Below, piece after piece: positions 1,935 to 60,997 of a stretch of 64,000 nucleotides of DNA. The notes below the pieces were generated by a model. The model saw nothing but the letters and a program-made list of their open reading frames with translations, was not told where the DNA came from and searched no databases. The stretch lies in IMG/VR virus record IMGVR_UViG_3300006805_000023. The stretch is one strand, 5' to 3'. The translations under genes and the position numbers were made by a program. Source of the stretch: a virus (lineage: Duplodnaviria > Caudoviricetes). The first letter of the stretch is position 1; each line of letters opens with the position of its first letter.

Positions 1935-4316
1935 CTAAGCCTGGACGGTGGAGCCCTGAACGTCGCGAGCGATGAACTGCTCGACGTCGGCACCGCTTGG
2001 CAGGAGCGTGAAGTCGATCTCGAACGCCTCGGCGGACTTGGTCGGAATCACGTACACCTTGGCTTTGGCAAGGTTCTGATTGCGGACGTCCGGTGTGTTG
2101 GTGTCGGCGTCGCACTTGAGCTGGAACCACTCGATAGCTTCCTGCTGCTTGCGCGTCCGGAAGGCAGGTTCCACGATGTTGAGCCAGTCTTCCCACATCG
2201 TCGGGCCGTTCTGTTCGAAGTTCAGACGGCGGGAAGCCTGACGGACGACTTTGATGAGGTCGAACATCATGCGGCGAACGTTGATGCGGTCCAGCGAGGA
2301 CGCGAAGCGCTGCAGAGTGCGCTGGCCGTAAACCACGACGCCGGTGTCGTTGAACGACGCGATGGCGTTGAGGGCGTTGCCGTTGCCGGGGCCGTACATC
2401 GCGTTGCGATCCTCTTCGGTGGTCGCGTATTCGACAGCCAGGGCGTTTGGCACCTGACCGCGCTGCTCACCAGCTGGGGCGGTCCAGACCTTGCCAACCG
2501 AGTCGTTGTAGGCGAAGACGCCGGGAACGAAGGTGGTAGGCGGCATCCAGAGGTTCTTCTTGGAGTAAGGGTCGTAAACCTTGACCCACGGCCAGTAAAG
2601 GGCGGCCATGTTGGTCGCGAAGGCAGTGTGAAGGCCGGTGTACTCGCCGGTGCCGTTGTGCCAGTCGATGACCTGCTGGAGCGACAGGCCGAATGGCGTG
2701 TCATAGATGCCGAAGCAATCGTAGCGCTTCAGAAGGATCTGAGTGACCTCGTCCAGAACGGCTGCCAGAGTAACTCCAGGAACCGCCAAGATGTTGATGT
2801 CATAGAGATCGACGCGGCGGAAGTGCTGCAGACCAGTGTAGGTGCTGTTCGAGATAGTGCCGATGTACTCGGCGCTCGAAGGATTGGAGCCGTTGTAGCC
2901 CTTGGCGTTGTCGAACACCTGCTGGGACGCCTGAGCGTTGTCGGAGGTGCGGATGGAAGTCTGAGCCCCCATCAAGAAGCGCGGGTTGTTGGGGTGACGA
3001 ACGCGATCGTAGGAGTTTATGGGCTGCTCACCATTGGCACCCAAGTAAGTCGCTGTGACGTATTGGGAGATTGGGTTGGCCTCAGTGCCGACCACTGTGT
3101 CCCAGAAGTTCGGGCTGGCGGGATCGTAGCCGATCACGTTGTCGAACACTTCAACCTGAACACCACGGAACAGGATGCGGACGCGCTTGGTAAGGACTCC
3201 GACTGGGCTCCAGGCGCTGGAGGTGGTCGTCACCGCCGTGCAACGGTAAACAACGCCGAAGCGGTGGCCGGTCGTGGACTCCACGAAGCCGGTTTCGGTT
3301 CCAGGAGTGATCGTGCCAGCGTAGCCGGACACCACAATCGAGGTGCCGTTCGGGATGGCCGTAACTGAGTAGTTGCCGTCGTAAACGGAAGTGCCGGACA
3401 CCTCAATGGTGTCGGCGACCTTGAACTCGGAGCTGTTGGAGACGTTCAGGACCAGACTGCCGGAGCTGTTGGCAACACTGGTGATCGTAGCAGCCGCTGA
3501 GTCGAAGTTAACACCACGAGTCTCGCCAACGCGCACGCCATTGGTGGAGTTGAGAGCGAGCAGATCGAATTTGGTGTCCTTCGAAGGCGCAGCTGGCATG
3601 ACGCCCTGCAGGGGGATACCCTGGCTGGTAATGACGTTGCCCTGAGCATCGAGGTTGGCGAACTGGCCACCGTCTTCGATCAGGACTTCAATGCCCTGGG
3701 AAGATCCGAAGTTGGCGAAGTCGCCAGGATAACGAGCGCGGAACGACAGCAACGGGGTGACCTGACCGTGATGACGGCTCATGACGAACACCTCAGCCGG
3801 AGCTGCGGCGGAGTCATCAGAAGAGTCGATGCGGACGTCGCTGGTGTCCGTGTAGATGTCGAGCAGCTTACTTGCGAAGGTGATGACGAGGCCGGTGATG
3901 TCCGTGATCTGCAGGTTCTGGCTGGTGACCCGGCCAGTCTGGGTGATCTTGACGAAGTCGCCAACGTTGAGGCCATGACCGGTCTGAACGTTGATCGAGA
4001 AGATGTCGCCAGAGGCCTCAGCCTCGCCCATGGAGTCAAACAGAGCGGTTTCCTCGGTGTACACCTTGGCAACGCGGCAGTACCACACCTTCTGACCACG
4101 GCGCAGGAAGTTGATCGCGGCGTGCGGACCGAAGGAGTTGGCAGAGGGCTCGCCAAAGACTCTCAAGAACTGATCAGGAGAGGTGAGCAGGGTGGGCTTG
4201 TTGAGGGGGCCGCGTGCTGCCACGCCGACAAGGGCGAAGATGGTCGTGGCCTGACCGGCGATGTAATCGCTAAAGTCGCGTTCGTTGATGTAAACTCCGG
4301 GGCTAAGGGGCGTCAT
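1935..4316 (-). CDS. contractile tail sheath protein
   Basis: N-terminal LSPGVYINERDFS; C-terminal W.APAG..RG, VVYGQRTL, LDRINVRR and PTKSAEAFEIDF sheath motifs. Confidence 0.95.
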   Translation of the reverse strand: MTPLSPGVYINERDFSDYIAGQATTIFALVGVAARGPLNKPTLLTSPDQFLRVFGEPSANSFGPHAAINFLRRGQKVWYCRVAKVYTEETALFDSMGEAEASGDIFSINVQTGHGLNVGDFVKITQTGRVTSQNLQITDITGLVITFASKLLDIYTDTSDVRIDSSDDSAAAPAEVFVMSRHHGQVTPLLSFRARYPGDFANFGSSQGIEVLIEDGGQFANLDAQGNVITSQGIPLQGVMPAAPSKDTKFDLLALNSTNGVRVGETRGVNFDSAAATITSVANSSGSLVLNVSNSSEFKVADTIEVSGTSVYDGNYSVTAIPNGTSIVVSGYAGTITPGTETGFVESTTGHRFGVVYRCTAVTTTSSAWSPVGVLTKRVRILFRGVQVEVFDNVIGYDPASPNFWDTVVGTEANPISQYVTATYLGANGEQPINSYDRVRHPNNPRFLMGAQTSIRTSDNAQASQQVFDNAKGYNGSNPSSAEYIGTISNSTYTGLQHFRRVDLYDINILAVPGVTLAAVLDEVTQILLKRYDCFGIYDTPFGLSLQQVIDWHNGTGEYTGLHTAFATNMAALYWPWVKVYDPYSKKNLWMPPTTFVPGVFAYNDSVGKVWTAPAGEQRGQVPNALAVEYATTEEDRNAMYGPGNGNALNAIASFNDTGVVVYGQRTLQRFASSLDRINVRRMMFDLIKVVRQASRRLNFEQNGPTMWEDWLNIVEPAFRTRKQQEAIEWFQLKCDADTNTPDVRNQNLAKAKVYVIPTKSAEAFEIDFTLLPSGADVEQFIARDVQGSTVQA

Positions 4317-13039: not shown

Positions 13040-16000
13040 TTAAAGGGTGCAGGCACCGCCTGCGCAGCCAGATTCTTCCAGGAATGGGGCCTGGGTGTCA
13101 ACGTGCTCGGAGACCGTCTGGCGGTCGTCATCGTCAGACACGATGTAGTAGAGAGACTTGCCGCCGATCCGGAAGAAAAACAGCTGTTCACGCAGAATCA
13201 GCTCCAGTGGGATCTTGCCGTCCGGGTAACGCTTGTATTGGTAGTACAGGTTCGTGGAGATCGACATGCACATGAACTTCTGAATCGCGGCGGCGATGCT
13301 GAGGTATCCAAAGTTGTCCTTCATCCCGAAGGCGTGCTGATAGACTCCGAGCGTCCCTTCTCTGGTCAGAACCTGAGGAACCAACACGCGGACCGGGCCA
13401 GACTTGGACTTTTTGAAGGTCACTTCGGAACGCACCGGGTCGATCCCGTTGGTGCTGTTCTGGACGACCGAAGACGACTCGCACGGCATCTGAGCCGACA
13501 GCGTGCAGTTGCGCAGGCCGTGCTTCTTGATGCGCTCACGCAGGCCTTCCCAATCCATCTTCAGAGGAACCGTCACGATTGTGTCCAGGTCCTTCTTGTA
13601 ATGGTCGATCGGCAGCAGGCCCTGAGCGTATTTAGTATCCCTGAAGCCGGGGGCTGCGCCCAGCTCTTCGGCCAGCTTGCAGGAGGCATCGAGCAGGTGC
13701 CACTGCACCATTTCCATGAGTTCGGCGACGCGGTTCGGGGCGTCCGGGTGGTCGTAAGTGAGGCCTTCGCGAGCCAGCCAGGCGGCGAGGTTGGTGAGGC
13801 CGACTCCGAGGGAGCGCCAGTACTTGCAGAACTGCTCGGCGGCAGGCACTGGGTAGCTCTGGTAGTCGATCAGGGTATCGAGGTGAGACACCGTGGTGTA
13901 GGCGATCCTGGAGATGTTGTCGGCGGTGATTTCGGTGGCGTTGAGAGCACTCAGGATGCACAAGCCAATCCAACCGGGGCCGTCGATGTGCTGAATTGGG
14001 ATCGTCGGGTGGGTGACCTCCATGCACTGTCCAGTTACAATGCCGTTCACAATGATCTGATGATTCTCGGGCTCGGTCAGACAGAAGGTTTCCTCCTCAC
14101 CAGCGTAGGTGATGCTCTCGACTTCCCTGAAGTAGAGGTTGTGGGAGTTGTTGCTGCCAGGGTGCGTCGCCAGCCACTCGCGGAGCGAAGCCATCTTGGA
14201 CTCCTGGCGAACCCCGATAAGGTCCGCAAACAGCACCAGATTATCTCGTGAGGAGATCATCAGACGCCAGGTGGCCTTGCCGTCATACTCGCGCATCCCG
14301 CCCTTGCCGTCTTTCATCAGGCGCTTGCCAGCCTTGACTCCAGGGTGGAGCGATGACATGATACCAAACTGGCTCAGCAAGACTTGCACCTCACGAAGGA
14401 GAGACTTGCTGACCTGAGCAATCGTGACGCTGGCAGAGGCACCATAACAGCCGATTGTAGCATCAGCGGTGTAGAGACCACGCAGGAAAGCCCCAACCGT
14501 GGTTTTCGTCCCACGCCAGATGCTAGCTGGAACGCGATGCTTGCTGCCGGGGGTGACACCATCCGCTAGCAACCTGCGCCCAAAGGGGAGGCTACGCGCA
14601 CTTGCCACCCAGTACCCGAAGGCCTCGTCGAAATGTTTGTTGCTAAACGAGTAATCGGGGACGAGTTCGGATGTTGGGGAACTGTCAGTGAACAGCTGCT
14701 TCAGGAGGCTGGAGAACACCGGCCCCAACTCATCGATTTCATCATCCCACAGCTTGATGATGCCGTGCTGACTGGTAGCGTTGCGGGTTGAAACAGAACC
14801 GTCTCCGATGAGGTGCCCAGCAAGCTCAGCGTAGGTGATGTCATCAAAGTCTCCGAAAAATTCAGTATTGGATACCCTGATGCGGCTGCCAGCTGCTAAC
14901 TCGAACAACCTAGCTCTGCCGCCATCATAAAGCTCGAATTCATGATGAGCTGTTGCCCTCACGGTGAGACCACCAGACAGTTTCAGGTCGAACACCTCAG
15001 ATGACTCAGAGGTCCTCACCACTGGTGTGGAGTTGGCCACCCCGTGCTGGTTGACCACGAAGGAACTGTTGAAGTCAGCACCAGAACCAAGTTCGTGGCA
15101 GCCTTGCTCCAGCCAGAGGTCGCGCATCGGGCGGTACCCGGAAGTGGTGAGCAGTTTGGTGTCACCACTGAGACAGAGGTTGGACATGCGGACCGGCAGC
15201 GAAAAGGAGGAGTGCGTGTTGCAGTTCTCGATGTGCAGGTAGTAGAGGCGGCCAGTCTCAAGGGTGACATCGAGCGAGAGGTTCACCAGCTCCTTGGCTG
15301 AGATCTTCTTGGTGGTCAGTCCGGGGCGACTCTCGCATTCAACGTAGAGGCGGTCGAAGTCCGGAGTCCCCCAAGCCTCATACAGGTCCTTCACCTCGTT
15401 AGGGTTGAACAACGTGATGTCCTGTCCTGCGATGGCGCGGAGGTAAAGCATCCGGTTGACCACGATGCAATAGTCCAGCTTGAACACCTTGCGGTCGTGG
15501 GAGCCACGGGTCGAGGACTTAGCGATCACCAGCGACTCCACCTCAAGGTGCCAGAACTGGAAGAAGACCGTGGCCGACGCCGAGCGCACCCCGTGCTGGC
15601 TGGTGGACTTGATGGTTGACTCGAACATCTTCAGGAACGGAATCACGCCGGTCGAGACGACCTCCCCAGACGCCACCGTGGAGTTCTGAGGGCGAATCCT
15701 GGAGATATTCAGGCCAAGACCAGCACGGGCTGCCCCATACTTCATCATGGCAAGGTTGGTGTGGCCGATGGAATCAAGCGTATCGTCCATTTCAGCCAGA
15801 GTGCAGCTGGCAAACTGCCGCAGCGGGGTCCTGAGACCAGCACGCACTGGAGTGGGCTGGGAGATCACTAGAGTGGACACGCCGTGATAGAGATCGCGGA
15901 CCAGCTGCATCCTGACCTCACGCGGCTTGACGGCGTAGAGGGCGAGGGCTGTGATCATGATAGCGAACTGCGGGGTCTCGTAATGGCACTCCGAAGCCCG

Positions 16001-16321
16001 GTCTTGCACCAGATACTTCTCCATCCACCACACGATAGCAGCATAGGTGTAGCCGAGGTCGCGGGTGTGGTCGATGGCCTGCTCGGCCTCGTCCAGCTCA
16101 GCTTCCGAGTAGAGGGCGAGAGCCTGATCGTAGCGATGGGCGCTCAGACCCTGGTGCAGGAAGTTCTTCAGAGAAGGTGCAATGGTTCCGTCCCCTCCCC
16201 ACACCTCTCGGCGCAGGGCAAGGTTCAGCAACAGGGACGCCTGATACTGGGTGTCTGGGTTTTCCGGCGAGATGGTATCTCCGGCAGATTTTGCGGCAAG
16301 CTTAAGTTCGTCGATGGTCAT
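13040..16321 (-). CDS. nrdA: ribonucleotide reductase class Ia alpha subunit with intein
   Basis: FASC, SNL-[intein]-CMEV, CILSALN, MPCESSS, C-terminal CAGGAC; ATG 16321 preferred over TTG 16354. Confidence 0.95.
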   Translation of the reverse strand: MTIDELKLAAKSAGDTISPENPDTQYQASLLLNLALRREVWGGDGTIAPSLKNFLHQGLSAHRYDQALALYSEAELDEAEQAIDHTRDLGYTYAAIVWWMEKYLVQDRASECHYETPQFAIMITALALYAVKPREVRMQLVRDLYHGVSTLVISQPTPVRAGLRTPLRQFASCTLAEMDDTLDSIGHTNLAMMKYGAARAGLGLNISRIRPQNSTVASGEVVSTGVIPFLKMFESTIKSTSQHGVRSASATVFFQFWHLEVESLVIAKSSTRGSHDRKVFKLDYCIVVNRMLYLRAIAGQDITLFNPNEVKDLYEAWGTPDFDRLYVECESRPGLTTKKISAKELVNLSLDVTLETGRLYYLHIENCNTHSSFSLPVRMSNLCLSGDTKLLTTSGYRPMRDLWLEQGCHELGSGADFNSSFVVNQHGVANSTPVVRTSESSEVFDLKLSGGLTVRATAHHEFELYDGGRARLFELAAGSRIRVSNTEFFGDFDDITYAELAGHLIGDGSVSTRNATSQHGIIKLWDDEIDELGPVFSSLLKQLFTDSSPTSELVPDYSFSNKHFDEAFGYWVASARSLPFGRRLLADGVTPGSKHRVPASIWRGTKTTVGAFLRGLYTADATIGCYGASASVTIAQVSKSLLREVQVLLSQFGIMSSLHPGVKAGKRLMKDGKGGMREYDGKATWRLMISSRDNLVLFADLIGVRQESKMASLREWLATHPGSNNSHNLYFREVESITYAGEEETFCLTEPENHQIIVNGIVTGQCMEVTHPTIPIQHIDGPGWIGLCILSALNATEITADNISRIAYTTVSHLDTLIDYQSYPVPAAEQFCKYWRSLGVGLTNLAAWLAREGLTYDHPDAPNRVAELMEMVQWHLLDASCKLAEELGAAPGFRDTKYAQGLLPIDHYKKDLDTIVTVPLKMDWEGLRERIKKHGLRNCTLSAQMPCESSSVVQNSTNGIDPVRSEVTFKKSKSGPVRVLVPQVLTREGTLGVYQHAFGMKDNFGYLSIAAAIQKFMCMSISTNLYYQYKRYPDGKIPLELILREQLFFFRIGGKSLYYIVSDDDDRQTVSEHVDTQAPFLEESGCAGGACTL
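14027..15175 (-). mobile_element. LAGLIDADG intein in NrdA (383 aa) ending in Gln
   Basis: Starts CLSGDTKLL; block B ATAHH; LAGHLIGDG and FLRGLYTADA; ends NGIVTGQ before the catalytic Cys. Confidence 0.92.
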
Positions 16322-22759: not shown

Positions 22760-25627
22760 ATGAGCAAAGTCCTAAAGCAGCCCGTTATGTCCGGGCCTGA
22801 GCATCCACCATCCGAGGAGCATCCGGCCTGCATTAAGTGCGCCTTGTTCAAGACTGCCGAGACCCCGTTCTGGGACTCCTTCTACGAGCAGGACGGCAAG
22901 ATCAAGATGGGGATGCCCGATTACCCGGTGAACGGTGGCTGGGTGATGGTAGTCGGCGACGGGATCTCCAAGGAAATGGACGAGGAGGAGAAGCCGACCG
23001 ACCTTAGCGTGCTGATCAAGCACCTACGGAGCATGGGTCTCAACAACCGCGTTGTCTATGTGCCAGGCACGCTCTGTGTGGCCCCGGACGGTACCGAGGG
23101 ACGCAAACGCAACCTCAAGAAGCCAGAGATCAGCCGCTGCTTCGGTCACCATATCCGGTGGCGGGTGGACTACCTGAAGAACATCGGCCTGTGTGGGCTG
23201 ATTGCCGCCGGTCCCGTGGCGTCCTATAGTCTGCTGGGCCACATGGACTCCAAGCAGTGGGGGCAGCGCAAGCCCTACGTCCACGACCACGACATCCCGG
23301 TGATCGGGACGATTGACGTGGAGGCGACTCTGGTTGCTCCGACCAAGCGCCCCCTGCTGATTACGCAGCTCCAGTTTGCTGTGGACTCCTTGGAAGGGCG
23401 CATCGCAGCTACTGACCGTCACCAGGTCGCCTACACAGTGGCGTGGTCTCCTGAAGAGTTCGATGCTTGGTTTGAAGGTCTGGACCTGCGCAAGCCGCTA
23501 ATGTGGGACGTGGAATCCAGTGGGGTCAAGCCCTTCGCAGCTGGTTACCGTCTGGGCGTGTTTTCCTTCTACCACCCGTCCCGCGACAAGGTTCTGATCG
23601 TGGCGACTCCGGACTACAAGCATGCTCACGACAAGTATTCAGACTGGGTGGATGCTGCCCTGGAACGCTTGGAACAGGGCTCCGAAGAGGATGTGCCGTG
23701 CAACAGTTTCGACCAGCAGTGGCGCAAGATGGAGCCAAAGGTCAAGAAGGTGATCGAGGCTGAGGAGTACAAGAAGCTGGGTCACAATCAGCAGTTCGAT
23801 GATGTGTCGGTGTATGCCAGGTACCGCTGGCAGATGGGCGGCTACTTCAACGACACGATGATCATGAACTACCTGTTGACGCCGGACGAAAAGCGCAACG
23901 GTTTGGAGGCTCTGGTCCAGAAGTGGTATCCGGAGGCCGACGGTTACTGGGACGCTCTGGACGAATATAAGAGCCAGTACAACCCAGAGTCTTACATGGA
24001 GATTCCGTGGGACGTCTTGGTGCCTTACGCGGCCTACGACACCTGGGTGCTGTGGCCGGTGTTCATGGCGATCCTCAACGAGTTCAAGAGGCTGGATGAC
24101 GAAGAGTATGGCGGCCTGTTCGTGAGGCGCACCGAGGGTGGAGTGATCCAGCCCACCTACTCGCTCCTTGAGTATGCGATGTTTGGCCGGAAGATTCACC
24201 AACGGATGTGCACCGAGCTGGAGAAGACCGGAGCACCGATCGACACCGAGCTGCTGCCACGCATTTACGACGAGTACAACAGGCAGCGTGATGCTTTGGC
24301 CGTCAAGCTCAACTCCCATCAGGACGTCGTAGCCTTCTGCTCCGAGGTCCTAGGACCACAGGCCAAGAAGGGAACCCCGAACTTCAAGCTGTGGAAGGCA
24401 GGCGAGATCCCAGAGCTCAACTGGGGCTCGCCGGTCCAGCTCAAGACCTTCTTCCTTGACTACCTCGGAATGAGCACTGACCGCCGGACCAAGACCGGCG
24501 GTGTCAGCCTGGATGAAACGGCCCTGCTGGGTATGATGACGGAGCACGAGATCGTCAAGATCCTGCTGGACTGGCGCGGAGCCGACAAGTTCGTGACCTC
24601 CTTCCTCGATCCGCTCATCGAAAAGCGCGTGCTGTGGCCGGACGGACTCACCCACGCCTCCTTCAGGCCGTCCGGCACCGAGACCAGCCGTCTCGCAGTG
24701 TCCAGCCCGAACGTCCAGGCCATCCCGCGTGACGGCTTGGTCAAGAAGCTCTACTGCCCACGCGACCGTGCCAAGGGCTGGCTGGTGACACGCGATTATT
24801 CAGGCCTCGAAGTCCGCGTGATGGCTTGTATGGCGTCCGATGAATCGCTGATTCACACCTTCATGACGGGTGGTGACCCCCACTTCAACACGCAGCGCCA
24901 CTTCTTCCACGACAAAGCTGACAAGAAGAATAAGACCCAGCGCTCGATTTGCAAGCAGGCCCTGTTCGGGCGAATTTACGGCCAGACCGCCAAGGGTCTG
25001 TATGAACTACTGCTCGGAAACGGTGTGATGAACCCCGACACCGGCCTCCCGATCACTATGGAGGAAGCCGAGGCCTTCAACCAGATGCTGGACGACGCCT
25101 ATCCGGCCATCGCCAGCTGGGTCAACGCCTCTCACCGCTTCTCGATCGCTACCAAATACGTGGCGTCGCCCTTCGGATTCGTCCGCCCTCTGGACGCCCT
25201 GCAGGACCACGCCACCTTCCTGACCCGGAAGCGTGAAAAGGGTTGCTGGGACAATCAGCGCTTCCGCAAGCTCTCCAGCGCTATCTCGAAGGACCTCAGG
25301 CGTGCTCAGAACTGTGTGGATGCTGAGACCGAGTGTCTTACTGCCGAAGGCTGGAAAACCTATGATAAGCTGGCAGCCGGTGAGCTAATCATGACGAAAA
25401 ACCCGGATACCGGAATCCTGGAGTGGCACCCGATCCTGAAGATGAACGTCTTCGAGGAATCGTCCACGCCGGTATGGGAAGTCGAGACCAACGCCTTCTC
25501 GGCCTGCGTTACCCCGAACCACCGCTGGCTGGTGACGACCCGCAAGCGTGGCGGCAAGGGTAAGCCAACCCAGTATGTCGATGAAATCTTGACGATGGAG
25601 CAGATGGTAGCCTCGAAGGGCTTCTAG
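22760..25627 (+). CDS. polA: family A DNA polymerase, N-terminal part (UDG-like domain, 3'-5' exonuclease, motifs A and B, N-terminal intein part)
   Basis: CIKC..., WDVESSG (ExoI), GHNQQFD (ExoII), YAAYD (ExoIII), RDYSGLEVR (motif A), KQALFGRIYG (motif B); ends at TAG 25625-25627. Confidence 0.93.
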   Translation: MSKVLKQPVMSGPEHPPSEEHPACIKCALFKTAETPFWDSFYEQDGKIKMGMPDYPVNGGWVMVVGDGISKEMDEEEKPTDLSVLIKHLRSMGLNNRVVYVPGTLCVAPDGTEGRKRNLKKPEISRCFGHHIRWRVDYLKNIGLCGLIAAGPVASYSLLGHMDSKQWGQRKPYVHDHDIPVIGTIDVEATLVAPTKRPLLITQLQFAVDSLEGRIAATDRHQVAYTVAWSPEEFDAWFEGLDLRKPLMWDVESSGVKPFAAGYRLGVFSFYHPSRDKVLIVATPDYKHAHDKYSDWVDAALERLEQGSEEDVPCNSFDQQWRKMEPKVKKVIEAEEYKKLGHNQQFDDVSVYARYRWQMGGYFNDTMIMNYLLTPDEKRNGLEALVQKWYPEADGYWDALDEYKSQYNPESYMEIPWDVLVPYAAYDTWVLWPVFMAILNEFKRLDDEEYGGLFVRRTEGGVIQPTYSLLEYAMFGRKIHQRMCTELEKTGAPIDTELLPRIYDEYNRQRDALAVKLNSHQDVVAFCSEVLGPQAKKGTPNFKLWKAGEIPELNWGSPVQLKTFFLDYLGMSTDRRTKTGGVSLDETALLGMMTEHEIVKILLDWRGADKFVTSFLDPLIEKRVLWPDGLTHASFRPSGTETSRLAVSSPNVQAIPRDGLVKKLYCPRDRAKGWLVTRDYSGLEVRVMACMASDESLIHTFMTGGDPHFNTQRHFFHDKADKKNKTQRSICKQALFGRIYGQTAKGLYELLLGNGVMNPDTGLPITMEEAEAFNQMLDDAYPAIASWVNASHRFSIATKYVASPFGFVRPLDALQDHATFLTRKREKGCWDNQRFRKLSSAISKDLRRAQNCVDAETECLTAEGWKTYDKLAAGELIMTKNPDTGILEWHPILKMNVFEESSTPVWEVETNAFSACVTPNHRWLVTTRKRGGKGKPTQYVDEILTMEQMVASKGF

Positions 25628-26314
25628 TCTCTGCACCGGACTGGCGAGTGGGAAGGTGCAGACGCCCCTTATTCAGACCGGTTCCTGCAGCTCATCGGGT
25701 GGTATGTGACCGACTCCAGCATCAAGCGTGGAGTGGATGGGAGGTCTTCTACAATTGAAGTCGGTCAGGACTCTTCCAAAAAAGACAACTGCGAGCAGAT
25801 TCGAAGCATCCTTGGCGACTGGGCTATCAGCGAACGCCCGGAAGGGACTTTCTTGCGCTGGCGTGTGAATGTTGCTATCTCAGAGGAGGTCATCAGGCTG
25901 CTACCGCGCCGGAAGCTCACCAACGAGTTCATCAGGTCACTCTCGCAGTTTCAAGCAAGACTCGTGATGAGTGAAATGCTCAAAGGAGATGGCAGCCGTG
26001 GGCGTGTCCTCTATGCTGAGGACCAGGAGGAGGTTGACTTATTTCAGACTCTGGCTTTCATAGCTGGCATCGCCACCAACGCTGGTTGGCGTGACATGTC
26101 GAAGTACCCGCCACGTGCCAGCAAAAAGCTTAAGCGTCCGATCATTTCGAAGAAGGGTGGCTACTGGGAAGTTTCGGTTCTCAGCCGTAAGACAGCGCAG
26201 GTCCTGAAGCCACAGGTCAAGATTATCGACGACAAGCGCTTGGTGTGGTGCCCGACCGTGCAGAACAGCACCTGGGTGGCCCGTCGCAAGGGCTGCGTTT
26301 ACGTGACAGGGAAC
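25313..26314 (+). mobile_element. intein in PolA interrupted by one in-frame TAG
   Basis: RRAQN|CVDAETE (block A), VTPNHRW (B), LIGWYVTDS and MLKGDG (LAGLIDADG-like), VWCPTV...VYVTGN|TAIQS (F/G). Confidence 0.9.
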
Positions 26315-26791
26315 ACCGCGATCCAGTCGGCTGCCGGAGACCTCACGGTGTTCGCTGGTTGGCAGATCCGCAACGTCATGAAGGACGTTGGGCTGGACTC
26401 CGAGATCGTCAACATCGTTCACGATGATATTTGGATCAACGTCAACAGCGATGATCAGGTGCCGATGACCACCGCTGTGATGCGTCAGGTCATGGACAAC
26501 TCACCGGACTGGCTCCCCGACATGCTCCCAGGCTATGACCCGTCTTGGATCACGGTGCCGATCATCGGCGAGTGCGACGTCGGGATCAACGCCAAGGACG
26601 CCTTTGGCGCTAAAGAACCTGATTGGGGCGTGGCCGACTCCCGTCTGAAGCTCAAGGTGCCAGGCGTCGTCATCAACAAGATCAACGGGCGCGACCTTGC
26701 GACGGAATGCGAGCCAGACTACGTCGATTTCTTGGATAACTCAGATCTTCTCAGGTCAGTACTCAACGTACAACGTAGCCAGTTCAATTAA
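25706..26791 (+). CDS. polA: family A DNA polymerase, C-terminal part (C-terminal intein part plus motif C), same frame as the N-part
   Basis: 25706-22760 is divisible by 3; contains TAIQSAAGD and IVHDD; the frame is open from 25628. Confidence 0.9.
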   Translation: MTDSSIKRGVDGRSSTIEVGQDSSKKDNCEQIRSILGDWAISERPEGTFLRWRVNVAISEEVIRLLPRRKLTNEFIRSLSQFQARLVMSEMLKGDGSRGRVLYAEDQEEVDLFQTLAFIAGIATNAGWRDMSKYPPRASKKLKRPIISKKGGYWEVSVLSRKTAQVLKPQVKIIDDKRLVWCPTVQNSTWVARRKGCVYVTGNTAIQSAAGDLTVFAGWQIRNVMKDVGLDSEIVNIVHDDIWINVNSDDQVPMTTAVMRQVMDNSPDWLPDMLPGYDPSWITVPIIGECDVGINAKDAFGAKEPDWGVADSRLKLKVPGVVINKINGRDLATECEPDYVDFLDNSDLLRSVLNVQRSQFN

Positions 26792-33129: not shown

Positions 33130-36100
33130 ATGGTTCAACCCCCAGACAAGCATCACGACCTCCGCACTTACCTCCTAGACCAGGGTATCGAGGAAGCCAA
33201 GTACTGCTCTCCTGAAGAGCTGGAGCTGCTCGACACGATGCTCCACGAGATGGCTGAGGACGGCAACAGTTCCACCTACGACAGAATGATCGAGGAGGAC
33301 TATTCGCGACCTCCTCCAGACATCCAGGAGTTTGTGGAGAGCAACCAGTACCTTGGTGAGGTGTGCCGAGGCACCGACGAGGCTCCCGGCTTGTTTCCGA
33401 AGTGGCGCGAGGTGCTCTACGAGATGTTCGACGGCTCGTCCAAGTATAAGCAGCTGATTCTGGCTGGTGGGATCGGTCTGGGCAAGTCGGAAATAGCTGG
33501 AACTCCTATTCCCGTTGACGGTAAGGGCACGGTCCCGATCGAAAAAGTGCAGGTCGGTGATGTGGTACGTGGCTTGTCTGGGCTGCGCAAGGTCACAGCC
33601 ACCCACGATGAGGGTGAGCTAGAGACCCTCAGGATTAGGACCAGGCTCAACCACCAGATTGAGTGCGGCTACGAGCGCCACAGGCTCCTAGTAATGGATT
33701 GCGCCGCTCTTACCGAAAAGTGGCAGTTTGTAAACTCGTTTGCTGGGGGCGAGGTAGTCTTGCTTTATCCAGGCAACACCTTCGGCCCTAACGAATTATC
33801 TGATCTTGACGCTTTCCTCCTCGGTCTTCAAATAGCTGAAGGTGTGCGCCAGAAGAAGGTCCGTAGGTGCTTTTATTTGTCGGTGCACCGGGATGAAGCT
33901 ATCTTCTTAACCGAGACCTTCCATTTCATACACAAAGTGCCGTCTCATGCGAGACCGAACAGCAATCTGCTAAGGGTTGACAGGTACTCAGACCTACACC
34001 GTGAGGTATCACACCAACTCTGCATCGACAAAGTAGTGCCTGACTTCATCAAAGGAGCCACTCGGCGCACTATCTGCCAGTTCCTGCGTGGTTGTTTCAG
34101 CGGAGACGGGACGGCCTTTGCGCAGAGTGTCGGATACTCGACCGCGAGCAGGCAGCTTGCGGTCGATATTCAGGAGCTACTTCTGCGTCTCGGCATGCTG
34201 ACCCGATTTGAGGAGCGTGACAGCTACAACGCTGCCAGCGGCAGGCAGGGTGCTGGCTCCAATCAGCTCTGGTTACACGGCGAAGTTTCCAAGGCGCGCT
34301 TTGTCGCAGAAATCGGCTTCTTTTACCCAGAGAAGCAAGCTGCGGCTATCCTCGCGCTTAACGGGGACAGCCGCCACAACGAGCACAAGTACGGCTTCAA
34401 GATCCCACGTGCCACCGTCGATGTCCTGATCTCGCAGCAGCCTCCCGGAACAACCGGGAAGAAACACCCTGACTACGAAAAATCGCCGAGGCGTCTGCTC
34501 AAGCGGTTGCGTTCCCAGAAGTGTACTACCAGGCTCCTACGGGAGGTCCTGGCAGCTGGTGGTGTGCTCCCGAAGCTGCTCCAGCAAGTTGCCATGGGCG
34601 AGGTCTTTTTCGACCAAATCGAGTCAGTGGAACGAAACCGGGCTCACTGTTACGACTTATCTGTCGAAACGGTCGAAGACCCGTCGTTCATCTCGGCTGG
34701 CTTTATGAGCCACAACAGCTTCATTGGCTCCATCGTGGTCCTCTACAAGCTGTGCTGTGCCTTGTGCCTGCGTCACCCGCTGTCCTACTACGGGATGTCC
34801 AAGGTGACGTCCATCAACTTCAGCTACTTCTCGATCACGCAGGCCCAGGTCAAGGGTGGTACCTTCGCGGACACCATCAACATGCTAACGGAGTCCCCGT
34901 TCTTCACGGAGAACATCAAGAATCCGAGCAGCTCCCGCAAGTACTCCAGCCGCAGCATCGGGTTTAGCCGAAACCTGCGCATTGAAGCTGGTTCCCGAAT
35001 CTACGAAGCCCTCGGTCGTAACACTCTAGTGGCTCTGGTCGATGAAATCAACTTTCGACTGGAGCGCGACGCAGCCGTGGCGGCAGCCGATTTGTTCAAC
35101 GCCATTGAAAAGCGCTATAAGTCCCGTTTCCGTCACACCAAGGATGGCATGATCATCCTGATCTCATCCGCGAAGGCCGAGAACGACTTCTTGTCCTCCC
35201 ACATCCGCAAGTCCCGCCACGACCCCACGGTCAAGATCTGCGAGTTTCCATGGTGGGAGGTGGTCGGACCGTGCCGCATGAAGTACTCAGGCCAAAAATT
35301 CTGGGTGGACATCGGGGACAACATCAGCCCAGCCGCGATCCTGCAGCCAGGCCAGGAGAAGAACCTCGCAGCCAGCCGCCTCATCCACGTGCCAGAAGAG
35401 CACCGGGAAGACTTCGAGGGAGCTGGCGGGATCGACCGTGCCATCCGCGACGTCGCCGGTGTAGCTACGGGACGTGTTGCCAAGCTGTTCCCGAACATGA
35501 TGCCGCTCATCAACTGCATCCGGGACGGCCTGCACAACCCGTTCAAGGCCGACGTTCTACCATTGTCTCTGACCTCCCTGCACCAGTTGGCCGACTGCCT
35601 CAAAACCGGCGGTCACGGCAACCAGGCAGGGGAGCAGCTGGTGCAGTTCAGGCATGGCAAGCTGCAGCCTCTACGTCACCCGACGATGCCACGCTTCCTG
35701 CACATCGACATCAGCTCGGGCGCTCAGGACAACTGCGGGATTGCAATGGTCCACCCGTTTGCCACTTCTAAGGTCGAGCGCACCTCGATGCACAACCAGA
35801 TGCGCGAAATGCTGGTGCAGCCTCTGATTGAGATCGACTTCGCGATCGGGCTCAAGCGTGAGACTCCGTCGGACCCGCTCGACTTCGGCAAGATCCGAGC
35901 TTTCATCCTGTGGCTGCGCGCCTGCGGCTTCGACATTCGAAGGATCACCTGCGACTTGCGCTCCATGTCTCAGGAAATGCGCAACATCCTCACCAAGATG
36001 GGGTTCAGGGCCGAGTACCTGTCGTGCGACAAGACCAAGGCACCCTATGAGTCGCTCCGGATCGCGGTCTTGGAAGGACGCCTCCACACCGGAGATCTGC

Positions 36101-36411
36101 CCTGCTTCTTGATGGAGATGTCCAATCTGGAGGACACTGAGGACAAGGTTGACCATCCCGCCAACTTCACGGTTGAATGGAAGCCAGCGATACCGTTCGG
36201 GATGGTCCTAGGTGGTCCGGCATCTAAGGACATCGCGGACGCCGTGGCAGGTGCCTGTTACAACTGCGTGACCGACGTCGAGGGCATGGTCGGTCTCAGC
36301 CTCCCGGATTCTCACACCGAGTACATGGAGAAGCTGCTCACAGCCTTCCCCAACCCGCTCAAAGACACCTTCGAGCTTCCGCATGAGTCAGACATCCAGG
36401 TGTTTGACTAG
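33130..36411 (+). CDS. terL: terminase large subunit with intein
   Basis: Walker A GGIGLGK|S, Walker B ALVDE, nuclease HIDIS....D, KDIADAVAG. Confidence 0.9.
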   Translation: MVQPPDKHHDLRTYLLDQGIEEAKYCSPEELELLDTMLHEMAEDGNSSTYDRMIEEDYSRPPPDIQEFVESNQYLGEVCRGTDEAPGLFPKWREVLYEMFDGSSKYKQLILAGGIGLGKSEIAGTPIPVDGKGTVPIEKVQVGDVVRGLSGLRKVTATHDEGELETLRIRTRLNHQIECGYERHRLLVMDCAALTEKWQFVNSFAGGEVVLLYPGNTFGPNELSDLDAFLLGLQIAEGVRQKKVRRCFYLSVHRDEAIFLTETFHFIHKVPSHARPNSNLLRVDRYSDLHREVSHQLCIDKVVPDFIKGATRRTICQFLRGCFSGDGTAFAQSVGYSTASRQLAVDIQELLLRLGMLTRFEERDSYNAASGRQGAGSNQLWLHGEVSKARFVAEIGFFYPEKQAAAILALNGDSRHNEHKYGFKIPRATVDVLISQQPPGTTGKKHPDYEKSPRRLLKRLRSQKCTTRLLREVLAAGGVLPKLLQQVAMGEVFFDQIESVERNRAHCYDLSVETVEDPSFISAGFMSHNSFIGSIVVLYKLCCALCLRHPLSYYGMSKVTSINFSYFSITQAQVKGGTFADTINMLTESPFFTENIKNPSSSRKYSSRSIGFSRNLRIEAGSRIYEALGRNTLVALVDEINFRLERDAAVAAADLFNAIEKRYKSRFRHTKDGMIILISSAKAENDFLSSHIRKSRHDPTVKICEFPWWEVVGPCRMKYSGQKFWVDIGDNISPAAILQPGQEKNLAASRLIHVPEEHREDFEGAGGIDRAIRDVAGVATGRVAKLFPNMMPLINCIRDGLHNPFKADVLPLSLTSLHQLADCLKTGGHGNQAGEQLVQFRHGKLQPLRHPTMPRFLHIDISSGAQDNCGIAMVHPFATSKVERTSMHNQMREMLVQPLIEIDFAIGLKRETPSDPLDFGKIRAFILWLRACGFDIRRITCDLRSMSQEMRNILTKMGFRAEYLSCDKTKAPYESLRIAVLEGRLHTGDLPCFLMEMSNLEDTEDKVDHPANFTVEWKPAIPFGMVLGGPASKDIADAVAGACYNCVTDVEGMVGLSLPDSHTEYMEKLLTAFPNPLKDTFELPHESDIQVFD
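33487..34716 (+). mobile_element. LAGLIDADG intein (410 aa) in the TerL Walker A motif, Ser1
   Basis: GK|SEIAGTPI...FLLGLQIAEG...FLRGCFSGDG...CYDLSV...FMSHN|SF. Confidence 0.88.
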
Positions 36412-56437: not shown

Positions 56438-56504
56438 GCTGCTTATGGCCCTTGGGACCGATCCAACCTAGTTAAGTCGGTCCCATGGGAATGTGTTTCA
56501 CGGC

Positions 56505-57932
56505 TTAGCTGCCGAAGCTGGTCGGCATGTTGCTGATGCGGACCGTCGAGTAGTACTTGTTGTTGATCATCGCCTTGCCGTAGCTGGAGGCGAAACCGCG
56601 ACGGCTCATGAAGTCGTCCAGCTCGACCGTTGGGGTCGTGAAGAGCAACAGCCAAGGAGCGAAGACGTAGCCCGTGCGGACGAATTCGTTGCCCTTGTAG
56701 CCGACGAGGGTTTCGGTGACGGGGTAACGGGTGTCGCCGTAGAGGTCGAGACGACCCAGCTTGCCCATTTCGTGCGCACCTTCGATCTCGGCGTCGTCGT
56801 TCTTCGCTTCGAAACCAGCGAGGGTCTCGACGATGTTGGAAGCCTGCTGGCCGAGCAGAGCCCAGTTCGCACGAGCACGGTTGGTGCCACGGGCGATGAA
56901 GCTGGAAGCACCGACGAGGGCGTCGATGAAGGACAGCTTGTGTTCCTGGAAGCTGATGTAGCTGCCGGTCGGGATGTTCGCGGACCAGTTGAAGGTACCA
57001 GCGCCAGCCTGCTTGCGGACGTCTTCGATCAGCTGACGGTCCACTTCCCAGTGGAGGTGATTGGTCACCGCTGGAGCCAGCATCGACTCAGCGTTCACCT
57101 TGTGGAGAGCGTCGAGAGCCATTGCGGCCTCACGGGTCCAGCGAGCGCGCAGCTTGCGGGTTTCCGCACGGATCGGGCGGCTCTGGAGCTCAAGGTCCAC
57201 CTGCTGGGACTCAGGGTTGAGTTCCTGGTGGTAGTTGTAGCTCACTTCGACCGCCGTGCCATCAACTGGCAGGCCGACGTCAGAGATCGACACTTCACCG
57301 GTCGCGTAATCGACGGAGCCTTTGGCAACCGAAGCCACGTTGTACATGATGCCGTCGCCGCCATCACGATAGACCGCCGTGTCGGCGACCAGCTGCAGGG
57401 TGCCGGGGATCAGAGGGGTGTAGGCCAGGCTGCCGGAGGTGGCAGAGCTGGACACCGCACCGAGCATTTCGGAGGTGACGCGGTCGCCGGAGTCCGTGTA
57501 ACGGTCAGCGTGGCCGGTCAGCGCATCCCAGATCTTGGAGCCGCGAGGGGTGTTGCCCTTGTCCTTGCCGGTCACGAAGTTCGCGAAGAAGATCAGACCG
57601 GTTGGGCCGTCGAGTGGCTGCACCGTGAAGAGCTTCTGGGCGATCAGGTTTTCCGACATGATCGAGATCATCGGCATGGCGTACTTGTCCCAAGTGCCAA
57701 TGTTGGTGCTCGTGGTGTTTTCCACCATGCCGTTGTTGATGGCATTGCGGTAGTTTTCGAGCATGTTGGCAGCGAAAGCCTTGGTGTAGTCGTCAGGAAG
57801 GCCATCGACCATTTCCTTCCAGCCCTTGGCTTCCATGATGTTGCCTTTGGAACCGACGCCCATGGGGGTTTCGGCGAGTTTGATGCCTCGAACGAGAGTC
57901 TCGACGAGTTTGGAGTTGTCAACGTGTGTCAT
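56505..57932 (-). CDS. major capsid protein (T4 gp23-like)
   Basis: VQPLDGPTGLIF, I.AETRKLRARWT.EAA..L.A.H..NAE..L, GY.FAPW, GFASSYG. Confidence 0.95.
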   Translation of the reverse strand: MTHVDNSKLVETLVRGIKLAETPMGVGSKGNIMEAKGWKEMVDGLPDDYTKAFAANMLENYRNAINNGMVENTTSTNIGTWDKYAMPMISIMSENLIAQKLFTVQPLDGPTGLIFFANFVTGKDKGNTPRGSKIWDALTGHADRYTDSGDRVTSEMLGAVSSSATSGSLAYTPLIPGTLQLVADTAVYRDGGDGIMYNVASVAKGSVDYATGEVSISDVGLPVDGTAVEVSYNYHQELNPESQQVDLELQSRPIRAETRKLRARWTREAAMALDALHKVNAESMLAPAVTNHLHWEVDRQLIEDVRKQAGAGTFNWSANIPTGSYISFQEHKLSFIDALVGASSFIARGTNRARANWALLGQQASNIVETLAGFEAKNDDAEIEGAHEMGKLGRLDLYGDTRYPVTETLVGYKGNEFVRTGYVFAPWLLLFTTPTVELDDFMSRRGFASSYGKAMINNKYYSTVRISNMPTSFGS

Positions 57933-57977
57933 TGCAGTGGGTAGCGTTTAGCTTGGGTGGGTGGTGAGTGCTTGGGG

Positions 57978-59888
57978 TTACTTCTTCTTGGGCTGAGCGC
58001 GACGAAGGGAACCGAGGAGACTGACCGACTCATTCAAGTCCTCAGCCGGAGGGGCAGGAGGAGCAGGAGGAGCCGGAGGGGTACCACCGGGTTTCGGGGC
58101 GCTCTCATTGAGCTTGGAAGCGGCGGCTTTGACAATGCGGTCCGAAGCTTCTTCAAGCTTGGTGTAGACCTTGATGCCCTCAAGTTCAGCCTTGTTGGCT
58201 TCGTAGAGTTCGGGCTTGATCTGCTTGAACAGCTGACGGCCCATCTCGGTCATGTCCTTGTTGTACTTCGTCGCGAGCTTCCGAGCGGCCTGTTCGTACA
58301 GGTCACCACCTTCACCGCGTTTGCCACGGTTACTTTCCTTGAGAGTCTTGTGTTCCTGGATCAGCGTTTCCGTGGCGGCGTTGAGGCGCTTGGTGCGGTT
58401 TTCGTTGATCTGCAGACGGCGCTGGAGCTTGGCGATGCCACGCTTGGCCTCGGGGAGGGTCGCAGGCTCGGGGATTTCTTCGAACGGCTCCTCACCGCCA
58501 GCTGCGTCATAATCGACGGGATCGGTGGCGACGCCGTCGGCGTTGGCTTCGAGTTCGTCGGCGAGTGCCAGAGCGGCTTCAGCGTCCACGCCACCTTCAG
58601 CGGAGGTGCGGAGCATGTCGGCGGCCTTGATCAGGAGGTCCGCAGTGGCGGAGCCTTCTTCGTTGCCTTCGTCTTCACCGCCAGGGGCAGGAGGAGCAGG
58701 AGGAGCGCCAGCGCCGGGGGCGGGAGGAGCAGGAGGGGCCGGAGGGGCGTCTTCTTCGTTCTCGTCGAGGCGGGTCGCGAAAGCGGTGAGGCGAGCGTTG
58801 GCGTCTTCGATGATGAGTTTGACATCCGGGTCTTCACGCATCAGGGCAGCAGCCTTGACGCGCATGGTGTCGATGGACTCAAGAAGCGCAGCCTTGTCGG
58901 AGGTCCTGAGTTTGGTGAAGTCCGTCTGGGCAAGACGGATGGCGTTGGTTTTAAGCTCGCGGGCTTCGATGAGTTTGCTCATTTCGGTGGTATTTTGCGT
59001 TGGTGTTGGGGCGGAGATTGGGGCGGGAACTGGTGCAGGAGGCGTCGGAGCGGTCTCGACGATCTTCTCTTTCGGTTTGAGAGCTGCGGCAGCTTCAGTG
59101 ATGCATCCCAGAGCGCTGGAGACTGAATCGAAGGTGCCGAAGTTGAGGGCGTCGTTGCCAGCGAACTTGAGCTTCCCGTCCTGACCTTCGATCAGAGAGA
59201 GTTTGCCGAACGCGCTGGAGACGACCGATACCAGAGTGCGGTTGATCGCGGATTCCTGGATGTCTTCTTCTGGACTTGGAAGGGTTGGAGCACGACCGGC
59301 GGCAACTTCCTGAATGTTCCTTGGGATGGCGCGCTGCACGGATGGCGTGAAGACCACGTCCCACGTTTCGAGCATGAAGTCCTCGTTGACGTCCAGGAAA
59401 CCTTCGGCCTGAGTGGTGGTGCCTGAGCCACGGCTGGAGACACCCCAGCGGACACGGGCTTCGATGAGGGACCGCAAGAGGTTACCCTGCGGCGTCGGCA
59501 GGACCTCAAGGGTGCCAAGGATGTCGCCTTCGCGCAGTTCACCCTTCGATTCGGCAATTTCAGACTCGGTGGCAAGCCAGACCTTGGTTACGACGTGGGA
59601 GGCCTCAGCCATCCTGGTCATACCGTCTTCTGGGTGCTCGATCATCCCAAGGACACCGCGCTCGGCGAGCATCTTGGAGAAGTCACTGCCGGGGGCAAGG
59701 TTCTTCTCCCAGAGCTTCTTGCCGTAGCGGCGACCGTTGAGGTTGGTCTCCACATGGTTTTGAAACACGCCAGTCGCCTGGAAAGTGGTGCGACCGGCTG
59801 CTTCGTGCAGCTGAATCGGGCCGTATTGACGGAAGCCGCTCTTTGAGAGGGACTCCTGTACTGTCTGCCATTCACTGAGTTTAATCAT
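57978..59888 (-). CDS. prohead protease (gp21-like) fused to scaffold/core region
   Basis: GVFQ....N.NGRRY, LG..EHP, ASH, TP.G..L..L....V.WGVSSRGSG, TWDVVFTPS; acidic, Pro-rich C-terminal half; TAGGTAT 7 nt upstream. Confidence 0.88.
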   Translation of the reverse strand: MIKLSEWQTVQESLSKSGFRQYGPIQLHEAAGRTTFQATGVFQNHVETNLNGRRYGKKLWEKNLAPGSDFSKMLAERGVLGMIEHPEDGMTRMAEASHVVTKVWLATESEIAESKGELREGDILGTLEVLPTPQGNLLRSLIEARVRWGVSSRGSGTTTQAEGFLDVNEDFMLETWDVVFTPSVQRAIPRNIQEVAAGRAPTLPSPEEDIQESAINRTLVSVVSSAFGKLSLIEGQDGKLKFAGNDALNFGTFDSVSSALGCITEAAAALKPKEKIVETAPTPPAPVPAPISAPTPTQNTTEMSKLIEARELKTNAIRLAQTDFTKLRTSDKAALLESIDTMRVKAAALMREDPDVKLIIEDANARLTAFATRLDENEEDAPPAPPAPPAPGAGAPPAPPAPGGEDEGNEEGSATADLLIKAADMLRTSAEGGVDAEAALALADELEANADGVATDPVDYDAAGGEEPFEEIPEPATLPEAKRGIAKLQRRLQINENRTKRLNAATETLIQEHKTLKESNRGKRGEGGDLYEQAARKLATKYNKDMTEMGRQLFKQIKPELYEANKAELEGIKVYTKLEEASDRIVKAAASKLNESAPKPGGTPPAPPAPPAPPAEDLNESVSLLGSLRRAQPKKK

Positions 59889-59950
59889 TGCTCGGATACC
59901 TATGACGCCCTGACCGGAGACTCGCTCTGAGTGCAACCTGATGCGCTCCG

Positions 59951-60373: not shown

Positions 60374-60997
60374 CTAGTTGAACATTGACGCCAGCAAGTC
60401 CTCAAGAGCTTGCTTGGTCGAGGACTCCGTGACCTGGACTCCCCCAAACAGCCACGTGCCAGCAGCTGCCTTGAAATCGTCCATCATAGCCCCGCTGTAC
60501 ACCGACAGCAGCGGAGTCAGGCTGAACGGCCTCTTGCCAGACACGAAGTCGGCGGTTGACGGGTGCTCAGCCAAGGGGACGCCGTGGGCGTAGCCGCCGG
60601 ACTTCACGAGAGCGTTGGTAATGTGGATGGCGACCAGACGCGAGACGGCGTCGGAAAACTTCTGATAGACAACTCGGAGCGGAACACCAGAGTTGATGTG
60701 GTGCTCGATTTGTTCGATCGTGCGAGCCCGTGGAGTAACGAGCTTGTGCTGCCAAGTCAGACGGCTGCGCGGAGTCATCCGGTCCCAATAGGCCTCAAGG
60801 AATGACTGCGTGACCAAATAATGGGAGTCCTCGCCCTTGTCGAGGCACTCCTGAGCGATGTACACGACGTTCTCGACCTTGTCGTAGTAGCTGAACCTGC
60901 CGTTGATTCCGGGCGAGATCTTGTGCGGCGATGAGAACAGGTCGCTGGCTTTGATGTGGGAACGCAGCATCCCCATATAAGTGTTGAGGTCAGACAT
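60374..60997 (-). CDS. hypothetical protein
   Basis: ATG 60997 overlaps the stop of the upstream gene. Confidence 0.6.
   Translation of the reverse strand: MSDLNTYMGMLRSHIKASDLFSSPHKISPGINGRFSYYDKVENVVYIAQECLDKGEDSHYLVTQSFLEAYWDRMTPRSRLTWQHKLVTPRARTIEQIEHHINSGVPLRVVYQKFSDAVSRLVAIHITNALVKSGGYAHGVPLAEHPSTADFVSGKRPFSLTPLLSVYSGAMMDDFKAAAGTWLFGGVQVTESSTKQALEDLLASMFN

Follow-up and report, generated by a model that had tools for sequence, protein, structure and literature searches.

The family A DNA polymerase gene (polA) on a 64,000-nucleotide stretch of a virus of the Caudoviricetes (Duplodnaviria; IMG/VR virus record IMGVR_UViG_3300006805_000023), a stretch that we call the window, is interrupted by a single amber codon that falls inside an intein. 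The element is very likely an ordinary contiguous, cis-splicing intein that carries a private C-to-A change, which would be an artefact or else a nonsense allele of recent origin. Artefact or allele alike, the TAG is neither an evolved split intein nor a programmed recoding site. The comparison on which this conclusion turns is that with other assemblies of the same locus, in which the codon encodes Ser.

Results

Translation of the window showed polA to be one frame of 1343 codons on the forward strand (22760 to 26791), whose sole break is the TAG at 25625-25627, in agreement with the original prediction made from the letters of this DNA. Counted from the Cys at 25313, where the intein starts, the stop is codon 105 of 334, that is, it comes 104 codons into the intein as had been proposed, and the motif coordinates agree with its placement after splicing blocks A and B and before the first LAGLIDADG motif (Table 1). 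It had also been claimed that the 26 codons following the stop are open and lead to a GTG at 25706, and that the catalytic motif C (VHDD) lies beyond the stop; the first ATG, GTG or TTG is indeed the one at 25706, and motif C was located from 26417. The range that had been noted for the whole feature (25313-26791) was right in its start and wrong in its end, the intein finishing at 26314 and 26791 being the end of polA. In the list of open reading frames (ORFs), the gene appears as a product of 955 amino acids (aa) from the ATG at 22760 and a 361-aa ORF from the GTG at 25706, and the source annotation also splits it, into P0001 (955 aa) and P0094 (361 aa, GTG start). Upstream of the stop lie a 3'-5' exonuclease domain and the larger share of the family A polymerase domain; the downstream part holds the rest of the latter, including motif C. 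Removal of the intein in silico leaves a polymerase of 1009 aa.

The same polymerase is found uninterrupted elsewhere. Protein P0093, which belongs to the same 90% cluster, has 1343 aa and presents Ser at residue 956, the position of the TAG codon. It is encoded on the ENA contig ERZ27275068 k141_133944 (185.6 kb), and this contig is the same as the window from 12760 to 36791 (24,032 bp) save for one base, 25626, which is C in the contig and A in the window. An uninterrupted intein frame, absent from the window (TAG), is then present in a near-identical assembly (TCG). The two sequences were compared over window positions 12760-51621, and these 38,862 bp contain three base differences and no insertion or deletion; a fourth difference was seen at the protein level only, in the tail sheath, whose residue 52 is Arg in the window (AGA, 4161-4163) and Ser in the ENA version. 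The read-level evidence was taken from Logan contigs, in which one run covers position 25626: a 468-nt contig of the wastewater run X1 spans 25248-25715 and has C at this base. As this contig shows other nearby differences, it must come from another strain. The state of the TAG in related genomes, a check that had been proposed together with the original prediction, is therefore TCG (Ser) both in the assembly nearly identical to the window and in a third strain, from which it follows that TCG is ancestral and common and that the TAG is private to the window assembly.

Other searches for the locus gave negative results. For the 61-nt stretch that comprises every 31-mer holding the TAG base, no run was listed among the served runs, a weak negative given that many runs are unserved. 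Neither the exact TAG locus nor the exact TCG locus was found in scans of IMG/VR and of JGI metagenomes. Nucleotide and translated searches of a phage collection showed no close relative, the best polymerase identity being 28%.

At each of the three DNA differences between the window and the ENA contig, the ENA version has a CpG (15.7% of positions belong to this dinucleotide; chance p about 0.004), and the substitutions, read on the cytosine strand, are of three types, with C replaced by A, by G and by T. Deamination of methyl-cytosine yields C to T only, and modification-linked miscalling is the main residual error in long-read assemblies. The mixed spectrum, small as the numbers are, hints at modification-linked miscalling. 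As an observation in its own right, the confinement of the differences to CpG may reflect cytosine modification that causes miscalls, or else CpG hypermutability.

Apart from the amber codon, the insert has the anatomy of a complete intein. The four closest polymerases in a collection of 5.8 billion proteins (P0002-P0005; 73-84% identity, 1000-1021 aa) are intein-less and read ...RR(A/S/G)QN and then directly T(S/P)IQSAAGD, and it is at that exact point that the window adds its 334 codons. Residues C1, T67, H70 and N334 show no variation, or almost none, across alignment A2, which has 42 members of the family, and Thr occupies position +1. The motifs shared by the family in this alignment are CxDxETExLT, TPxHRW, IHRTGxY, two LAGLIDADG motifs, VWCP and ...YITGN. 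All 42 aligned members end in Thr-Gly-Asn, with an invariant Gly333 where a penultimate His is usual. Inteins without the penultimate His of block G exist, and membership in class 1 is still allowed.

A fold predicted from the single intein sequence had a predicted local distance difference test score (pLDDT) of 36, and an AlphaFold2 model built from the family alignment was used in its place (pLDDT 94.1; predicted template modelling score, pTM, 0.91). With this model, Foldseek gave E values of 1e-11 to 1e-13 against VMA inteins and PI-SceI, while I-DmoI matched the endonuclease part. Structural comparison with TliVMA, PI-PfuI and PI-SceI resulted in Z scores of 20-24 over 283-300 aligned residues, and the splicing domain compared with mini and split inteins, including NpuDnaE and gp41-1, in Z scores of 15-18 (16.7 for NpuDnaE). 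The insert presents the features of a class 1 LAGLIDADG intein, namely insertion in a conserved motif, the splicing residues, and the Hint and LAGLIDADG folds. Judged by its sequence, it is a canonical bifunctional intein whose splicing and endonuclease motifs are otherwise intact and whose two activities are predicted from them. In the model, a predicted strand (105-108) located directly before HRTG begins at codon 105, and LAGLIDADG helix 1 extends over residues 122-134; by its position and conservation, the strand probably belongs to the Hint fold.

A phmmer search against 1.84 billion representatives returned 4895 matches at E ≤ 0.001, with 172 at E ≤ 1e-30, and almost all of the 150 homologous inteins listed are contiguous over residues 1-334 and lie inside larger proteins. 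The few listed homologues that are not contiguous have at least two matched stretches or belong to shorter proteins, and the one apparent fragment that was checked, P0243, considered as a natural C-half because it seemed to start at intein residue 102, was rejected: it is a gene call at a contig edge, and its frame is open upstream. The nearest matches, P0095-P0097, belong to the same clade of PolA proteins, have an intein at the identical site and show 50-57% intein identity, and the PolA of the gut phage MT121960.1 has an allelic intein that aligns without gaps across the TAG position. The insert matches no Pfam model (E ≤ 1) and no PDB sequence. The PolA intein family is very large, with thousands of representatives, and it is overlooked by current Pfam models and by PDB sequence searches. 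In addition, two more distant PolA relatives, P0006 and P0095, carry a second, different Hint-type intein elsewhere in the polymerase, after ...TSRLS(T/A); P0095 has both inteins, and its precursor reaches 1908 aa.

With respect to the signals that start and stop genes in this phage, ATG is the start codon of all 18 genes called between 13040 and 36745, none of which is preceded by a Shine-Dalgarno-like sequence. The GTG at 25706, the only start-type codon for a product downstream of the amber codon, is without the context of these starts. Many of the regions upstream of the 18 genes are C/A-rich, for example CCCCACACC and CCACACCTCC. Their stops are TAA in nine cases, TAG in five and TGA in four, and the claim that TAG is a normal stop elsewhere in this phage is supported by the five. 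Two other candidates for an in-frame TAG in the window were discarded. One, at 57942, joins two forward ORFs (56493-59126), and the pair is spurious because it lies antisense to the genes of a major head protein (phrog_138) and a head maturation protease (phrog_207), which occupy 56505-59936 on the reverse strand. The other, at 60374, separates two neighbouring genes, and an ATG follows 9 nt after the stop.

The phage is intein-rich, with two further intein-type inserts in the window. The large subunit of ribonucleotide reductase (13040-16321, reverse strand, 1093 aa) matches Intein_splicing and LAGLIDADG_3, and another protein of 1093 aa (33130-36411, forward strand) matches LAGLIDADG_3; both frames are uninterrupted.

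Table 1. Features of the interrupted polA gene and base differences between the window and the ENA contig (positions in the window).
Feature	Position	Strand	Remarks
polA N-extein, 851 codons, ends ...RRAQN	22760..25312	+	Pfam DNA_pol_A_exo1 and DNA_pol_A; intein-less P0002-P0005 align through the end
Full-length intein, 334 codons, Cys1...Gly-Asn334, then Thr+1	25313..26314	+	Insertion relative to intein-less orthologues
Block A (CVDAETECLT)	25313-25342	+	
Block B (TPNHRW)	25511-25528	+	
TAG, intein codon 105	25625..25627	+	Differing base 25626 is A here and C (TCG, Ser) in the ENA and wastewater contigs
Difference, TAG (window) vs TCG (ENA)	25626		
26 open codons after the TAG	25628..25705	+	Normal intein sequence; gapless alignment with homologous inteins
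HRTG motif	25634-25645	+	Conserved in the family
First LAGLIDADG motif (LIGWYVTDS)	25691-25717	+	
GTG, intein codon 132 (Val)	25706..25708	+	Inside LAGLIDADG helix 1; start called for the 361-aa ORF
Second LAGLIDADG motif (EMLKGDG), Asp-Gly	25973..25993	+	No or almost no variation at D226 and G227 across the 42 aligned inteins
Splicing blocks F (VWCPTV) and G (...VYVTGN)	26243..26314	+	W312, C313, R325, G333 and N334 invariant in alignment A2
polA C-extein, 158 codons and TAA, begins TAIQSAAGD	26315..26791	+	Aligns to intein-less C-termini; Pfam DNA_pol_A positions 276-360
Difference, Arg (window) vs Gly (ENA)	41259		RecA-like protein
Difference, synonymous	47860		

Discussion

According to the explanation that we favour, a LAGLIDADG intein would be inserted in a conserved segment of a jumbo phage family A DNA polymerase, between RRAQN and T(A/S)IQSAAGD, and the working form of the gene would be the uninterrupted 1343-aa precursor, as in the near-identical assembly. 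Self-excision of the intein would make use of Cys1, the Thr and His of block B, the terminal Asn334 and the Thr at +1, and its products would be the 1009-aa polymerase and a free endonuclease. The latter could home into intein-less polA alleles, for example those of the closest relatives. The amber codon itself would derive from a single C-to-A change at a CpG, by which a TCG Ser codon became TAG.

As to the nature of this change, we lean towards a consensus or base-calling error, which is probable though by a modest measure. It is less probable, but realistic, that a nonsense mutation arose very recently and left a plainly defective allele, and such an allele could last only through co-infection with an intact genotype. 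Assembly error or defective variant had been the last of the three options put forward in the original prediction, and it is the one that fits, with TCG in two other assemblies and the rest of the intein intact. It should be noted, as a point that weighs against our explanation, that the assemblies may be two real genotypes, since they differ at several sites, including one synonymous and two missense differences, and in that case the TAG would be a true allele. That it is a true allele of high frequency, with the polymerase still being made by trans-splicing or with the help of an amber-suppressor tRNA of the phage, seems to us quite improbable.

Each of these two routes to a functional polymerase deserves attention. 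In the case of trans-splicing, the locus would be a nascent split intein, of which an N-product of 955 aa and a C-product read from the GTG 25706 would be spliced into the 1009-aa polymerase. In favour of this idea, the break falls close to the canonical place for a split, between block B and the endonuclease; in addition, the natural split inteins of phage replication genes include some whose N-part is of about this length (PMC2677866), and the Hint domain resembles the NpuDnaE and gp41-1 split inteins. However, neither product would include residues 105-131 (27 residues), to which the predicted strand, the HRTG motif and the greater part of LAGLIDADG helix 1 belong. Furthermore, the C-product has no ATG, and its GTG is without the upstream context of the real starts in a neighbourhood where 18 of 18 genes use ATG; the endonuclease, free-standing in fractured genes, is here still fused in frame; and no natural split at the site of the TAG occurs among the listed homologues examined. 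One base separates the break from the intact allele of a near-identical genome, and therefore there was no time for adaptation. Independent starts, a whole splicing domain across the two halves and a split conserved in relatives are all absent from this locus. For the lack of a start signal, the loss of residues 105-131 and the in-frame endonuclease, the split-intein option of the original prediction is not supported, and we regard it as extremely improbable. The second route takes the TAG as a real allele whose full-length precursor is made via the phage's own amber-suppressor tRNA, either as buffering or, less likely, as a gate on the supply of polymerase. In its favour, several residues (S, A, R, K, H) occupy the TAG position in the alignment; codon 105 being variable in the intein family, almost any inserted residue should be tolerated. 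The differences at other sites of the assemblies, which may be real genotypes, also speak for this explanation. On the other hand, the TAG is missing from the near-identical genome and from the third strain and is not a conserved programmed site; it ends five of the 18 nearby genes; no further in-frame TAG is present in the recognised genes of the 64-kb window; the RNA 3' of the TAG is no more structured than shuffled sequences (z = -0.29); and a scan of the 64 kb found no tRNA in the window. No tRNA was found in one related viral record either, a result that is uninformative, the record being incomplete (55%). Suppression would in any case be buffering and not programming, because the near-identical genome has TCG. 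Programmed readthrough, another of the options that had been proposed, thus fails with a codon that is not conserved (TCG elsewhere) and that serves as an ordinary terminator, and suppression by a tRNA of the phage appears improbable.

With the contiguous intein as the preferred explanation, the case is a caution and not a discovery: a lone in-frame stop in a metagenomic sequence mimicked a split intein, and a near-identical assembly has a sense codon in its place. The differences at CpG cytosines may flag a DNA modification or a systematic mode of error in phage data. If the TAG allele were real and abundant, it would offer a natural test of buffering by a suppressor tRNA, or of how the fracture of an intein begins. 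Were suppression true, this would be a nonsense allele of an essential gene buffered by a phage-encoded suppressor in a jumbo phage with the standard code; were trans-splicing true, the split intein would have been caught a single mutation past its fracture.

The systems that come closest to the split-intein idea are the fractured genes (Dassa et al. 2009, PMC2677866), the cyanobacterial DnaE and gp41-1, and polA shares with them a phage replication gene broken after the N-terminal splicing subdomain. Fractured genes are two translationally independent genes with a free-standing endonuclease between the halves, and they are recurrent at multiple loci, 26 of which have been described (PMC2677866). 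In both fractured genes and natural split inteins, the endonuclease is free-standing or lost (PMC2677866). In contrast, polA presents a single stop in a conserved strand, an endonuclease that is fused, no start signal, and an intact allele in a near-identical genome. A further comparison is with phages recoded at TAG (code 15) and with phage-encoded suppressor tRNAs, to which polA is akin in that an essential gene of a phage contains an in-frame TAG. In recoded phages, in-frame TAGs are numerous and TAG is avoided at the ends of the recoded genes (bioRxiv 10.1101/2021.08.26.457843, PMC7886860). The polA phage differs from them in that five of 18 genes end in TAG and a single in-frame TAG was found in 64 kb.

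Among the inteins of known structure, PI-SceI, PI-PfuI and TliVMA/PhoVMA share with the polA intein the architecture of Hint plus LAGLIDADG, the Cys1, the Thr and His of block B, the terminal Asn and a nucleophilic +1 residue, and, like it, they interrupt a replication enzyme at a conserved catalytic segment. The polA intein departs from the solved inteins in its sequence, with only 9-16% identity, in its end, which is Gly-Asn instead of His-Asn, and in its one in-frame TAG. Further close systems are the copies in phage DP SC_2_H4_2017 (MT121960.1), 30% identical over the intein and the flanking polymerase, and in the metagenomic P0095-P0097, which show the same motifs and the same insertion point (..QN ahead of the initial C, and ..TGN ahead of T/S). 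These copies are uninterrupted ORFs located in diverged host polymerases, whereas the polA copy of the window is interrupted.

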